Counted from the first letter of the stretch, positions 26,563 to 38,268 are shown. The stretch: 64,000 nucleotides of DNA from an uncultured Gammaproteobacteria bacterium (GCA_964448725.1 CAYVAJ010000002.1:66587-130586); one strand, 5' to 3'. The notes: a model not told the origin generated them from the letters alone. Numbers and translations are program-made.

Positions 26563-26601
26563 AAAGAAAAGGTGTGAACCTAAACCACCTGGAAGGTGGA
26601 A
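26563..26601 (+). promoter_or_regulatory. conserved upstream motif, copy 1: AAAGAAAAGGTGTGAACCTAAACCACCTGGAAGGTGGAA, 57 nt upstream of a TATAAT
   Basis: near-identical copy at 38298-38336; contains the palindrome CCACCTGGAAGGTGG; TATAAT at 26658-26663. Confidence 0.6.
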
Positions 26602-26865
26602 TAATAAGATACGAAAGAGAGGTGAGGTAGAAATTTCGCTAGGTAGCAAAATAATCCTATAATATTGATTTTTCACTCTTTTTTTGCTAAAATAATACTG
26701 ATTTATCTAATAGTTGTTGAGTAATTACTTGGCATGAGTATTTGATGAATCAAGTTGCTCTTTAAGAGATTAAGAATCATTAGTACAGTAGATGGCGTAG
26801 TACCTATATTAGCTATATGTAGTACGCCGTCTATTGGCGCAGCAGTTTATTGCATGGAGGCATGA

Positions 26866-27198
26866 ATGTCCTATTTAGACGAGATCGACGAAGGTGGCTT
26901 TAATTCTAATGCACATCGGGCAACGCATGATCGTCCGTACTTTGGACGTCTGCAAGTTCTAAACATTGCAGAAGTCCAGGTAGGGAAGGTATATCAACGT
27001 GTCTACGCTTCAGGATCCGTGATAATCGAGATCCTAGAACCGCCTTTTAAGAAAAAGAACGGTTGGTGGGTAAAGGTCAGAAATCTGACGTACCCACGCG
27101 AAGACACGATATCCTTGGAGGACGCAGGTGTCACTCCATATCAGGGTGATAATGGCCCAGTATGGAATCCTAGAAACCATCTGCTGAGGGTGGAATGA
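26866..27198 (+). CDS. hypothetical protein (first gene of the fibre/ATP-synthase operon)
   Basis: RBS GGAGG; followed by a stem-loop at 27218-27249. Confidence 0.4.
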   Translation: MSYLDEIDEGGFNSNAHRATHDRPYFGRLQVLNIAEVQVGKVYQRVYASGSVIIEILEPPFKKKNGWWVKVRNLTYPREDTISLEDAGVTPYQGDNGPVWNPRNHLLRVE

Positions 27199-27383
27199 TT
27201 TTTTCTCTTTTCATTACTCCCTGCTGGGTTTTAAAAGCTTAGCAGGGAGTCTCTATTTAGAAGTATAAATTTTCATGATCACTGAATAAAAATTTCTTGT
27301 TTTTATGTAAGTATATCTTGATTTTGATTGCAATCTGGTGAAGTAATTGGGTATGATAGAATTGGGCGATTTAACAGTTACGA

Positions 27384-30300
27384 ATGGATCCAGATTCTTT
27401 AACCAGAAGTAAAAAAACTTCATCCTTTTTAAAACTTTACGGTAAGATTGCAGCATACAGCTTGGCTGTTGTGTTTGGAATCATAACTGTAGTGTATATT
27501 ATTGATTGGAACTCAGAGTCGGAAGATCCAACAACTCCTACAAAAACAAATCCAATGCCCGAAGTTTTGGCTGAAGCAGACAGTTTATTTGAGTCAGGGG
27601 GTGTAGTATTTGGTATTCCAACAAATTTTACTGCAGCAGCAACATTTGGTTCAGACATTACCGTTGCTCAAGATACTAATCTTGAAGGGGATTTGTATTA
27701 CAGAGGAGATTTAGTTGATCTTTCAATAATTGTCGATGGATTGGAAATAGACTCAGACTCGCTTTCAACCATCCTGGATGAAGGTGTTGGAATTAGTATC
27801 ACAGGTGATGAAGTACTGCAGATAAATAATACTGGTGTACTGTCATTTAATGGCCTTACCGGTGATGTTGTCTATGAGATTGAAGAACATAATATGTTTA
27901 AAAATATTCTTGTGCCTGGTAATGCCACAATTGTAGCAGATTCAACGAATGATTCGTTAACATTTATTCCTGGTGACGGAATTTCTCTTGCGACAGATGC
28001 GACTGGTAAAAGTATCACAATAACAAGCTCAAGCGCCTCTAGTGGTGTTAATACAATTACTGGCATACCAAATCAAGTTATTGTTACAAGACTTGGTCAG
28101 GATGTTATACTCTCACTCCCTCAAGATTTTCATACAGCTGCGAGTGTTACATTTTCTGAAATGACTTTGGCAGATCCAATTACTTCTGCTAATGTACTTT
28201 CATTTACTTCAAGCGGGCGTATCTCCACATTAAATAATGCTGATTTACTCCTCGGGAGTAATAGTACTGGAAATATACAATTCATATCAAAGGGAGCCAC
28301 ATCATTGTTGCTTAATGGATCAGACTTGGTTGCAAGCGGTTCGCTTACTGGAGTCACAGATTTTAGTGCCTCAGGTGAGATAGAACTTACATCACTTGCT
28401 AATGGAATTGTGCAAGCGCAAGGATATACATTAACCAGTGGACCTATCAATCTTGCAAGCAGTAACCACGTATCAGGAATTTTATCCGCAGAAAATGGCG
28501 GAACTGGTACTGATAAGACACCATTGGATGGACAAATATTAATTGGTAGCGGTCACACAAAAAGTTATGAACCGAGACATTTAAGTGTGGGTACTGGTAT
28601 TTCTGTAACAAGAAACCCCTATTCGTTAACTCTTACAAATAGCGGAGTAACAAAAATTGCTGGAGGAGTGAGGCATATTTTGGTGAATGGATCATATTCA
28701 CCAACAGGACTGACAGGTGATGTTACATTAACATTACCCCAGATACTTGATACTGTAGCCTCACCAACATTTGCAGCGTTGCGGCTCACCTCACATGAAG
28801 ATATTCTTACCTTTACTGCAGAATCAGGAGATTTAGCCTATCTCCAGATAGGTGAGCTTACACAGAATAGGAATTACACTCTCCCAGATGAATCAGGTAC
28901 TTTTTGTCTTACTTCAGGTAACTGTGTTGGAATTGGTGGAGGGCTTGTCGGAACCGGTACTGCCAACTATATTCCTAAATACTCAAATGCAAATACACTT
29001 ACGCCATCACTCATTTATGATGATGGATCAAGTGTGGGAGTTGGAACAACGCTCCCTTTGCTGGGAGTAGCACTTGATGTGAATGGTTCTCTTCGCATTG
29101 GAGTTGCAAGAGGCACATATGACATTTTGAACACTGTACCTGCACAGGGAGATCCATTGGCTTCATTATTCTGGGGAGATAGAACACTCTGTGATTCTAG
29201 TGGGAGTTGTCAGGGGACAGCAGGTGCAGGAGTTGAGAGCATGGGGACAGATGGATATATTGCTCTTTTTTCTAACAGCGGGAATACTCTCGCGAACTCT
29301 CTTATCTATGATTCAGGATCTGCTGTTGGGATTGGGACAACTACACTCACAGGATTTATTACGATTTCAGGAAGTAGTGAAAATTCAGCACTCTCCATCA
29401 ATCAGACGAACTCAGTAGGGGATATTATCAGTGCGTCAATTGAAGGGGAAGAGAAGATGATTCTAACCAGTGTCGGTGATCTGGATTTGGTGAGTGGGGT
29501 ATATAAAAATAAAGGAAATTCAGGTGCAACAGTAGGAGGATATTCTTGTGTAACAACAAGTGGTGGTATTGTTACCGGAAGCGGAGCATGTCCTGTAGAT
29601 CCATCTGCTACGTTGTGGGAATCACAAGGAAGTCTTACCTTTGCAAAAAATACGAATCATAATTTTGCACTTGGTGGTACAACCGTAAATAATGCAAAGT
29701 TCGCAGTATTAAATATAGATTCTGGTGATCCGACTATTTGGTTGAGAAGTTCTCCTACCCAAACTTTGTCAATTACCTCAAGCGGTACTTTTAAAACAAT
29801 TAACGATGCAAATATTACACTCGAATCAGGTGAAGATATTGTACTCAAACCAGGCAGTGGCGATATTGTTGTAGAAGGTAAATTAGTAACTCCAGAAAGC
29901 TCAGATTTGATAGTGGAACCTGAAGGGTCATTTCATGTTAGACCTCACGGACAGCAGGTATTGAGTGTTTCAACAGATGGAGTGGGAGTTAATACTACAA
30001 TTTCGCGTGGGGCATTTACTATAAAAGAACTGTCAAGTTTCCCAACACAAGGAGAAGGGGAGGGAACTCCTGATAATAATTTGATTTTAGATCCTGCAGA
30101 CAGTAATTTCTCATCTAATACTGGACATTGGACCTTATGGTCTGGATGGTCGATTAGTGGAGGAAGATTAACATATAGCGGAGGTATTGCTACTGCATCT
30201 TTAGAAAACCAATATATAGGCAATTATATTGAAGCCGGTAAAACCTATACAGTGAAATTTGATTTATTGGAAACAACTTCTCCAGGGGCGATTGGTATCC

Positions 30301-36495: not shown

Positions 36496-36504
36496 ATAGT
36501 TAAT

Positions 36505-37881
36505 ATGGGAAAAGCAACAGTAATAGGTATGAAAGGGCAGGTAATAGAAGTTGAGTGCAGCAGTGATGCAATGCCAGCAATGCACGATATTTTTGTACTC
36601 AAAGAGGATCCAAGTGTTTGGCTTGAGGTCAATGAGTCTGCTTCAGAAAACACTGTATATTGTTTTTGTTTATCAACAACAGACAAGATTTATCGAGGTG
36701 CTGAAGTAATAAACACTGGTACCTCTTTAAAAATACCAGTTGGTGATGAAGTGTTAGGCAGAGTAATAGATATTTTTGGAGAAGCGATTGACGGAGGAAA
36801 ACCATTAAAAAAAACAAAACTGCGTCCAGTATTCGAAAGTAATGCAAATTTTGAAACTATCCAAGTACCCGATAAAATTCTTGAGACTGGTATAAAAGCA
36901 TTAGACTTTTTCTCACCCTTGCCAAAAGGCGGGAAAGTAGGCCTTTTTGGTGGTGCAGGTGTGGGTAAGACAGTGTTATTAACCGAGGTAATCCATAATG
37001 TTGTGGTTCTTAATAAAAACAAAAGCATCTCTGTATTCTCTGGAGTAGGCGAGCGAACCAGAGAGGGAAAAGAGCTTTTTGAGACACTGAGAGATAGTGA
37101 AGTATTAGATCAGGTATCGTTGATTTTTGGTGCGATGGGAGAAAATCCTGCTATCCGATTTCGTACAGCAACAGCTGGTGCAGCAATTGCTGAGTATTTC
37201 AGAGACGAGAAAGAAAAAGATGTGCTCTTTTTTATCGATAATGCGTTCCGGTTTGCTCAAGCGGGATATGAGCTTGCAACGCTCATGAATACTATTCCCT
37301 CTGAGGGAGGATATCAATCAACAATGTCCTCTGAGATGGCAGCGTTGCAGGAAAGGCTGTTCTCAACAGATAAAGGTTCAATTACCAGTATTGAAGCAGT
37401 TTATGTTCCATCTGATGATATTACGGATTATGCTGTTCAATCTATTTTTACTCATTTGGATGCTTCAGTCGTTGTGTCCCGGGAAATTTACCAGGAAGGA
37501 AGGCTTCCTGCTATTGATTTAATTTCGTCTACCTCATCAACCTTAACTGTTGATGTAGCCGGAGAAGAGCATTATAAAACATATATTGCTGCAACAAATC
37601 TTTTGAAAAAAGCATCCTCACTTGAGCGAATTGTATCTCTTGTGGGGGAATCAGAGTTATCAACTGAAGATTTAACTACCTATAAGCGTTCAAAGATATT
37701 AAAAAATTATATGACTCAGTATTTCGCAGTTGCCAAAGCTCAGACTGGCAAGGATGGAGTCTATATTCCTCTGGAAACCACGGTGTCTGATGTAAAGCAA
37801 ATTATTAACGGAGATTTTGATAATAATCAGCCAGAAGAATTCCTCTATATTGGAAGTGTAAAAGATGTGAAGAAAAAATAG
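36505..37881 (+). CDS. atpD: F1 ATP synthase subunit beta
   Basis: P-loop [10 protein letters not shown]; DELSEED-like [10 protein letters not shown]. Confidence 0.9.
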
Positions 37882-37884
37882 CAT

Positions 37885-38268
37885 ATGGAAGAAAATAAGC
37901 CAGTTACAAAACAGAGCACACCTCCTCGTGAAGAATTGGCAGTCAATATTGTGAGTGCTGATGAAAATGTATTTGATGGGACTGTATACATGCTTACATC
38001 AAAAAACAATGAAGGAGAGTTTGATGTATTACCCCTCCATACAAATTTTATTACCTTGATTGAGGAAAAAATAATCTTACACAAAACTTCAAAAGAGAAG
38101 AAGGAAATACCGATAACTAATGGGGTACTCAAAGTAGCAGAAAATCAGGTGAGTATTATCTTAGGACCGTTTGTCGGTGCAGACCTATTACCAGAAGACA
38201 TACTTCAATCGTCAACACGTTCAGTAGGTTCAAAAATAGATAAGATTAAAAAACTGTTTGTTGACTAA
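37885..38268 (+). CDS. atpC: F1 ATP synthase subunit epsilon
   Basis: N-terminal beta-sandwich pattern LAVNIVSADENVFDGTVYMLTSKNNEGEFDVLPLH. Confidence 0.75.
   Translation: MEENKPVTKQSTPPREELAVNIVSADENVFDGTVYMLTSKNNEGEFDVLPLHTNFITLIEEKIILHKTSKEKKEIPITNGVLKVAENQVSIILGPFVGADLLPEDILQSSTRSVGSKIDKIKKLFVD

Follow-up and report, generated by a model that had tools for sequence, protein, structure and literature searches.

An F-type ATPase operon of Microgenomatia with a carboxylate-less c-like fusion and a giant fibre gene: a probable ATP-driven device for a surface fibre

A 64,000-nucleotide (nt) stretch of DNA (GCA_964448725.1, CAYVAJ010000002.1:66587-130586; hereafter the window), listed under an uncultured Gammaproteobacteria bacterium, contains an operon that resembles the one encoding F1Fo ATP synthase. 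The operon has no recognizable gene for subunit a. In the place of subunit c it encodes a 268-amino acid (aa) protein, termed here the c-fusion, in which a c-like helical hairpin without the ion-binding carboxylate is joined to a domain predicted to lie outside the membrane. Next to it stands a gene for a 1594-aa protein resembling phage tail fibres, termed here the fibre. We consider it probable that this unit, found in Microgenomatia (Roizmanbacteria, Levybacteria and WWE3), is a repurposed, ion-uncoupled derivative of the F-type ATPase that acts as an ATP-driven mechanical device for a surface fibre. The genes are as follows, with positions counted from the first letter of the window.

26866-27198, + strand: 110-aa hypothetical protein (open reading frame (ORF) call)
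27384-32168, + strand: 1594-aa tail-fibre-like protein, the fibre (ORF call, BLAST, hidden Markov model (HMM), PHROG)
32170-32976, + strand: 268-aa c-like fusion, the c-fusion (ORF call, profiles, model)
32978-33667, + strand: subunit b-like protein of the peripheral stalk, with one N-terminal transmembrane (TM) helix and a long helix (weak Pfam/NCBIfam matches, family profile against PDB)
33660-34127, + strand: delta (OSCP-like), longest ORF from 33630 (Pfam/NCBIfam, family profile)
34124-35596, + strand: F1 alpha (Pfam/NCBIfam)
35584-36495, + strand: F1 gamma, the central stalk (PF00231, E 3e-24)
36505-37881, + strand: F1 beta (Pfam/NCBIfam)
37885-38268, + strand: F1 epsilon, beta-sandwich present (Pfam/NCBIfam)

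The ORFs, gaps and overlaps given in an initial annotation of this DNA agree with the positions and junctions that we read directly. Fibre and c-fusion genes are joined by TAA-T-ATG, c-fusion and b by TAG-T-ATG, b and delta by a CATGAATAA overlap, and delta and alpha by an ATGA overlap. The likely start of delta is the ATG at 33660, which overlaps the stop codon of b. With spacing of this kind, the genes from fibre to epsilon look translationally coupled.

Homologues of the c-fusion are numerous. A word-indexed search returned 669 of them at E <= 0.001, with lengths of 250-290 aa, and those that carry names belong to Candidatus Roizmanbacteria, Levybacteria and WWE3. When 1.84 billion cluster representatives were searched exhaustively with HMMER, at least 649 clusters (50% identity) passed a threshold of E <= 1e-30; at E <= 1e-10, the number rose to 6,143. 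Orthologues of alpha, too, come from Roizmanbacteria, Levybacteria and WWE3, where databases name them "F0F1 ATP synthase subunit alpha" or "hypothetical protein". Based on the size of the family and the lineages named, the operon with the c-fusion is a trait of Microgenomatia, a class of the candidate phyla radiation (CPR), and no oddity of a single genome. The carrier of the window's unit is a CPR bacterium of this class. To obtain related loci, we scanned genome contigs with the single c-fusion sequence, which yielded two close loci, and metagenomes with an alignment, which yielded 80. The comparison covered 86 loci from relatives, of which 81 were left once duplicates had been dropped.

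The c-like fusion

The c-fusion is made up of three parts, with a conserved linker helix between the second and the third.

32170-32280 (aa 1-37), + strand: signal peptide with an N-terminal hydrophobic core
32281-32697 (aa 38-176), + strand: extracytoplasmic beta domain of the phi29 gp12 C-terminal / capsid-decoration type
32752-32973 (aa 195-268), + strand: c-subunit-like helical hairpin with an invariant GRNP loop and Asn247

We modeled the protein with AlphaFold2, using 120 homologues as input, and obtained a mean pLDDT (predicted local distance difference test) of 89.5 and a pTM (predicted template modeling score) of 0.71. The model shows an N-terminal hydrophobic helix, a beta domain (residues ~40-170), a linker (171-194) and two helices (195-232 and 234-267) that form the hairpin. 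The sequence of the linker is conserved despite its lower model confidence. Signal-peptide-like N-termini are present in 96 of 98 c-fusions: a small-x-small site comes after a hydrophobic core and immediately precedes the conserved domain. Cleavable signal peptides are built in this way, and we therefore predict an extracytoplasmic beta domain and a hairpin loop on the cytoplasmic side. This predicted topology is that of subunit c.

The ectodomain has the fold of PDB 3gqh, the C-terminal autochaperone / Peptidase_G2 domain of phi29 gp12, and PF11962 matches 5 of the 120 members (best E 8.9e-4). In phi29, gp12 is a virion protein (preneck appendage / tailspike), with relatives in capsid decoration and at the base of head fibres. 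Here, by contrast, one copy of the domain is fused to the membrane hairpin of a rotary ATPase, and another lies inside a cell-anchored fibre.

Is the hairpin truly c-like? The NCBIfam model "F0F1 ATP synthase subunit C" matches residues 185-244 of the c-fusion at E 0.0066. When the family hairpin was aligned to nine canonical c subunits with hhalign, 68 columns were paired without a gap (P 1e-3). An HMM of the nine, run against 4,702 ORFs of at least 40 aa from the window and the 86 loci, gave 23 matches at E < 10, every one of them a c-fusion (best E 0.002). Reciprocally, an HMM of the hairpin run against 4,287 ORFs from outside the family plus the nine canonical c subunits placed two canonical c subunits at the top (E 0.004 and 0.018). 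Comparison with PF00137, which had been proposed along with the c-like assignment, gave a mixed outcome: it is the second commonest Pfam among the 120 members and matches 21 of them, but all of these matches (best E 0.005) are below the gathering threshold. With the full c-fusion alignment as a profile against PDB, a c subunit appeared at E 6.2. Single members of the family are already labeled subunit c by JGI and NCBI. Each sequence test thus falls under curated thresholds; jointly, they are consistent and specific.

The loop motif G-R-N-P is invariant in the family, and the corresponding R-Q/N-P loop of canonical subunit c contacts gamma and epsilon. Eighteen residues past the loop proline, at the position of the carboxylate, all 98 sequences have I, V, L, A or Q. 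Acidic residues in the membrane core are found in 0/98 members for helix 1 and in 1/98 for helix 2. The carboxylate is never present, and hence the hairpin is predicted to be unable to bind ions. The fusion was thus correctly described at the outset as a non-protonatable, c-like protein with a domain on the extracellular side. Asn247 (+13), five residues before the lost carboxylate position, is invariant (98/98). Thr251, four residues past Asn247, occurs in 86 of the 98 sequences, and Ser211, in helix 1, in at least 90% of members.

F1, the stalks and the missing Fo subunits

Alpha, beta, gamma, epsilon and delta are each recognized by Pfam and NCBIfam, and the b-like protein is matched weakly. 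The score of alpha does not reach the atpA equivalog cutoffs, and that of beta lies barely above its own cutoff. These scores therefore make F1 divergent, yet closest to the F-type. The alpha, beta and epsilon models for N-ATPases (alternate F1F0) gave 348-429 bits against cutoffs of ~750 bits, and the gene order is unlike atpDCQRBEFAG.

Catalytic residues of F1 are conserved throughout. In all 36 relatives compared, the beta P-loop (GGAGVGKT), the catalytic Glu183 (in GERTRE) and the Walker B Asp245 are invariant. In alpha, the lysine of the P-loop (GDRKTGKT) and the arginine finger R353 (in SVTRVG) are found in 47 of 47 related sequences. These data uphold the earlier view of F1 as intact and, as far as sequence can tell, it is an active ATPase under purifying selection. 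The epsilon subunits of the family have a median length of only 96 aa, from which it follows that most of them are without the C-terminal inhibitory helices.

A profile of 40 b-like sequences matched subunit b in PDB at E 8.5e-6 to 2e-4, and a profile of 40 delta-like sequences matched solved delta/OSCP (E. coli delta) at E 9.5e-8. Because both profiles match solved ATP synthase subunits, we conclude that the peripheral stalk has been retained, which argues that the machine must still resist torque.

Two loci have unusual beta genes. At L005:14327-16117, beta is 596 aa long and exceeds the window's beta by ~140 aa at the C-terminus; at L006:14212-15584, it is present as two ORFs (199 and 259 aa), possibly due to a frameshift or an assembly error.

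We searched for the missing Fo parts in the 64-kb window and in 0.83 Mb of related loci. No PF00119-type subunit a is encoded between the upstream promoter-like region and atpF, in line with what the initial annotation had noted, and the same is true of the window and the related loci. The polytopic ORFs of the window are an MFS transporter, GT87, PMT_2 and YfhO glycosyltransferases, a flippase, a DUF6512 protein and an M50-like protease, none of which is subunit a, nor is any of ten polytopic neighbours scanned in the related loci. Neither phmmer with E. coli AtpB nor a scan for the R-x-x-G-N-x-x-A-G signature found a subunit a in the window or the 0.83 Mb of loci. A canonical, carboxylate-bearing c was likewise absent from both.

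Two polytopic proteins were considered as disguised forms of subunit a and rejected. One, of 577-580 aa and encoded between c-fusion and b, is a PMT_2/TPR glycosyltransferase; the other, encoded after epsilon, is an M50-like protease with an HExxH motif. The first type, a PMT_2-type (GT-C) glycosyltransferase with TPR repeats, sits at L055:10738-12480, L069:10752-12485, L071:7725-9458 and L079:6003-7736. The presence of these four inserted genes hints at glycosylation of some surface protein within the system.

The fibre and the conserved neighbourhood

Across the related loci, the conserved gene order is c-fusion-b-delta-alpha-gamma-beta-epsilon. In loci with enough downstream DNA, b directly follows the c-fusion in 52 of 56 cases, often with gaps of 1-10 nt, and alpha, gamma and beta come next in 31 of the 36 loci with at least 6.5 kb downstream. 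In three loci (L013, L017 and L028), gamma is the last gene of the operon; the 2-6 kb that follow contain neither beta nor epsilon, which must be encoded elsewhere or have been lost.

The fibre gene is also a frequent companion. By the profile of its conserved N-terminal module, it was detected in 46 of 86 loci; by profile or BLAST, a fibre-like neighbour was seen in 44 of the 81 de-duplicated loci. When we considered only the 13 loci in which the DNA extends 3 kb or more beyond the operon on each side, the fibre gene was adjacent in all of them. Its position differs among loci:

30 loci: upstream, divergently transcribed
11 loci: downstream of epsilon, same strand
2 loci plus the window: upstream, same strand

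Given this variation, it is the adjacency of the fibre that is conserved and not its position in an "a slot". The initial annotation had placed the fibre in that slot, which is correct for this genome and its closest relatives but not elsewhere, where the gene usually lies divergently upstream or after epsilon. The co-occurrence of fibre, c-fusion and F1, raised there as a point for comparison, is seen across the related loci, and the proposed link between fibre and ATPase finds support both in the adjacency and in a domain common to the fibre and the c-fusion.

The following parts of the fibre can be told apart.

27447-27503 (aa 22-40), + strand: single TM helix, preceded by a positive-inside N-terminus
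27504-28028 (aa ~41-215), + strand: conserved juxtamembrane module, kept in 46 loci
30573-31091 (aa 1064-1236), + strand: tail-spike-like segment (PHROG "tail spike protein", E 1.2e-5)
31041-31445 (aa 1220-1354), + strand: gp12-C-terminal-type domain, common to the c-fusion (ectodomain HMM, E 2e-24)
31953-32117 (aa 1524-1578), + strand: K1-lyase_C-like end (weak match)

The conserved N-module, defined by local jackhmmer on the loci, comprises the TM anchor and about 170 aa of tail-fibre-type repeats. A coiled coil and repeats of the NTGVLSxxGxTG type are present in the fibre as well, and everything past the TM helix is predicted to be extracellular. Judged by its sequence, the protein looks like the counterpart of a phage tail spike or tail fibre, anchored to a cell. 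A word-indexed search with residues 1-240 (27384-28103) returned no match, though the full-length fibre is in that collection.

The domain common to fibre and c-fusion can be seen by direct comparison: residues 77-152 of the window's c-fusion align with fibre residues 1259-1339 at a BLAST E of 1e-11 (38% identity). More generally, the ectodomain HMM matches every neighbouring fibre whose C-terminal part lies within the locus (E 1e-15 to 1e-25), and no other type of protein.

In a few cases, the pairing of fibre and c-fusion departs from the common arrangement. WWE3 genome GCA_013335095.1 has, on one contig (L091:1-14047), a 3384-aa giant protein with the shared domain, whose gene stands directly before the series b-delta-alpha-gamma-beta-epsilon, from which a c gene is missing; another contig (L003:1-3678) carries a divergent pair of fibre and c-fusion, away from F1. 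L048 has a second c-fusion paralogue (4710-5495, - strand), divergent from a fibre gene (5646-10229, + strand) and independent of F1. Beside the c-fusion of L061, no fibre gene was detected.

Other recurrent neighbours are genes of the envelope and surface: a PEGA-domain protein (12 loci), MreB (9), WecG/TagA (9), GH130 (7), sortase (6), prepilin peptidase (3), and a PMT-type glycosyltransferase. In the window, 12 kb from the fibre/ATPase unit, there is a further set of surface machinery, a glycoconjugate cluster at 49985-57746 with polytopic glycosyltransferase-type genes (two GT87, PMT_2, YfhO/PTPS-related) and a polysaccharide flippase.

With regard to boundaries, the 110-aa gene had been counted as the first of the unit. 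We rejected it as a member: a homologue was found in none of the related loci, and a hairpin with a 16-bp stem (27216-27250) follows it, between this ORF and the fibre gene. The 110-aa ORF is probably outside the unit. The hairpin itself is strong, a candidate terminator or regulatory structure. Bracketing the whole unit are two copies of a direct repeat:

26563-26601, + strand: 39-nt direct repeat, copy 1, followed ~55 nt on by CCTATAATATTG, a -10-like box at 26655-26666
38298-38336, + strand: 39-nt direct repeat, copy 2, followed by CCTATAATATTG at 38393-38404, upstream of the M50-like protease gene (38471-39196)

The copies are 95% identical, and there are two of them in 64 kb where chance predicts none. 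The repeat was not found in the related loci. We considered the copies as ends of an island and disfavour this, as they are absent from relatives and each has a -10-like box downstream; duplicated promoter/operator regions are the more likely identity. Upstream of the unit, repeat and -10-like box form a candidate promoter/operator region, whose membership in the system is uncertain. Given the second copy, the ATPase unit and the M50-like protease gene may be co-regulated.

Farther upstream in the window, ~3 kb of higher GC content (about 0.42; ~12500-15640) contain no convincing ORF and no Rfam match. A tRNA gene (15638-15710) and an ORF for a large serine recombinase (15673-17160, identified from its translation only) lie beside it, and genes with DUF5677, HNH and AbiTii domains follow at 17903-20364. 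The region ~12500-20364 probably represents an integrated island, of mobile or defence type, part of which has decayed.

Mechanism, alternatives and known relatives

How might such a unit work? As a tentative mechanism, somewhat less secure than the general case for a repurposed ATPase, we propose a carboxylate-less c ring with a crown of phage-fibre-base domains, driven by F1 against a b/delta stator without subunit a, and working a giant attachment organelle. The hairpins would form the ring, and the GRNP loop would dock it on gamma and epsilon. ATP hydrolysis by F1, free of the brake of epsilon inhibitory helices, would turn or strain the ring against the stator. Outside the membrane, the crown of ectodomains would hand the work to the fibre, the contact probably being the shared fibre-base / autochaperone-type domain. 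In the absence of subunit a, the b anchor would need another membrane partner, for which the TM helix of the fibre is one candidate. The work done on the fibre could be its trimerization or assembly outside the cell, where there is no external ATP, or its rotation, extension, retraction or release.

Several points weigh against this proposal. Ring formation, F1 docking, rotation and contact with the fibre are all steps that we infer, and gene adjacency could mean co-expression instead of physical coupling. The linker between ectodomain and hairpin is modeled at a pLDDT of about 63 and, if flexible, would transmit torque poorly. The c-fusion stands apart from F1 in WWE3 (L003) and in L061, and beta and epsilon are outside the operon in L013, L017, L028 and L048. 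A canonical atpB/atpE pair elsewhere in the genome is possible, the search having covered the window and the related loci. Finally, an MFS transporter dependent on the proton motive force is encoded in the window, which implies that the cell still needs some source of membrane potential.

The last two points bear on the idea that the unit belongs to an ordinary, ion-coupled F1Fo, with subunit a and perhaps a canonical c encoded elsewhere. The c-fusion would then be an accessory, comparable to the site-less hairpin of Acetobacterium woodii c1, or unrelated, and the fibre a mere neighbour. Split atp operons do exist in other bacteria, F1, b and delta are complete and canonical-looking, alpha orthologues carry ordinary F0F1 names, the transporter depends on the membrane potential, and the search for a and c covered the window and the related loci. 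However, neither a nor a canonical c turned up in ~80 operon neighbourhoods, the 64-kb window or the 0.83 Mb of flanks, and the slot right before b is consistently held by the carboxylate-less fusion. Alpha falls under the atpA cutoffs, epsilon is without inhibitory helices, and a chance neighbourhood cannot explain a domain common to fibre and c-fusion. We regard an ordinary synthase as unlikely.

Less likely still is that the 268-aa protein anchors the fibre in the membrane or helps to assemble it, with helices that merely resemble those of c, and that F1-b-delta is something separate, possibly a relic or a peripheral enzyme. This would account for the loci in which the c-fusion pairs with a fibre away from F1 (WWE3 and L048) or is apart from F1 (L061); it also accords with c-homology statistics that are all sub-threshold and with the generic structure of helical hairpins. 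Against it, the c-fusion is found right before b in 52/56 loci, often at gaps of 1-10 nt, the F1-docking loop G-R-N-P is invariant, and the reciprocal HMM searches are specific for c subunits and c-fusions. Moreover, without a rotor ring there would be little reason to keep a b/delta stator.

A decaying remnant of ATP synthase in a reduced genome, or cargo of a recent phage-derived island between the 39-nt repeats, is very improbable: CPR genomes are indeed reduced, ectodomain and fibre are phage-like and the direct repeats bracket the unit, but the nine ORFs are intact, catalytic and motif residues are invariant across at least 649 clusters (50% identity), the unit is syntenic across Roizmanbacteria, Levybacteria and WWE3, and the repeats, absent from related loci and each followed by a -10-like box, fit duplicated promoters.

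For a repurposed, ion-uncoupled ATPase there are precedents. The initial annotation stated that no system of this architecture had been described, overlooking the Type 2 and Type 3 F1-like X0 ATPases of Mycoplasma (PMC3369863; PMC12994834) and a preprint on CPR bacteria (10.64898/2026.03.03.709456). The Type 2 (gliding 'G1') and Type 3 F1-like X0 ATPases are required for gliding or for antibody cleavage by MIB-MIP, and are encoded by seven-gene clusters that specify a 12-TM 'protein 1' and a small cytoplasmic 'protein 2' but neither b nor delta (PMC3369863; PMC12994834). In 2012, Beven et al. knew of no equivalent in other bacteria (PMC3369863).

By analogy, these Mycoplasma ATPases appear to be the closest functional counterparts of the Microgenomatia unit. 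Both have a motor derived from F1 alpha, beta, gamma and epsilon, in a cluster without the usual a and c; both have ties to surface proteins (MIB-MIP and gliding legs in the one case), and in both ATP-driven work is proposed to cross the membrane. In contrast to Mycoplasma, the unit described here keeps b and delta and has neither the 12-TM protein nor the small cytoplasmic one. Its protein with two C-terminal TM helices is recognizably c-like, its partner is a tail-fibre-like giant, and its host belongs to the CPR and not to the Mollicutes. The c-fusion matches the architecture of a component of the Mycoplasma system and may or may not be a homologue of MMCAP2_0577 / MMOB1650; its synteny with the fibre is strong. 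The models of alpha-like and beta-like proteins, MSC_0618/0619 and MMOB1660/1670, gave 266-408 bits, compared to cutoffs of 520-850 bits. We place the unit outside the Mycoplasma F1-like X0 family because it encodes b and delta, because it has no 12-TM protein and because the family models score far under their cutoffs.

Compared with a canonical F1Fo operon (atpBEFHAGDC), the unit has the usual sequence of genes from c to epsilon (c-b-delta-alpha-gamma-beta-epsilon), encodes a catalytic F1 and the two stalks, and has an R-N/Q-P loop in its c-like hairpin. The differences are an operon without a, a hairpin that lacks the carboxylate and has a signal peptide and an ectodomain of 140 aa fused to it, an epsilon that is truncated in most members, and an alpha that falls under the equivalog cutoffs.

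Within the CPR, Troman et al. (2026) report that ATP synthase genes co-localize with a tail-fibre-like gene, which they take to connect the assembly of pili with the production of ATP (10.64898/2026.03.03.709456). The sections of their account of the 'pam' pilus considered here mention no modified c or missing a (10.64898/2026.03.03.709456), and no pam operon adjoins the unit in the window. In the open-access literature, we found no prior account of a c-subunit fusion or of a missing subunit a in the CPR.

F1-derived motors that serve surface structures are already known, and the Microgenomatia unit is a variant of these. Its significance lies in part in its hosts. Among CPR bacteria that have no electron transport chain, retention of an F-type ATP synthase is nearly universal, which has been called surprising (PMC11665869), and the presence of an F-type ATPase in CPR without a respiratory chain has been noted as a puzzle (PMC10413278). 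If our interpretation is correct, part of this puzzling 'ATP synthase' in cells without a respiratory chain conserves no energy, and scores of "Complex V present" for Microgenomatia genomes would be wrong in metabolic reconstructions. The unit would represent a second, independent recruitment of F1 as the motor of a surface structure, after that in mycoplasmas, with the stator kept whole and hence nearer to a true rotary device. It would also provide concrete candidate machinery for host attachment in episymbiotic ultrasmall bacteria.

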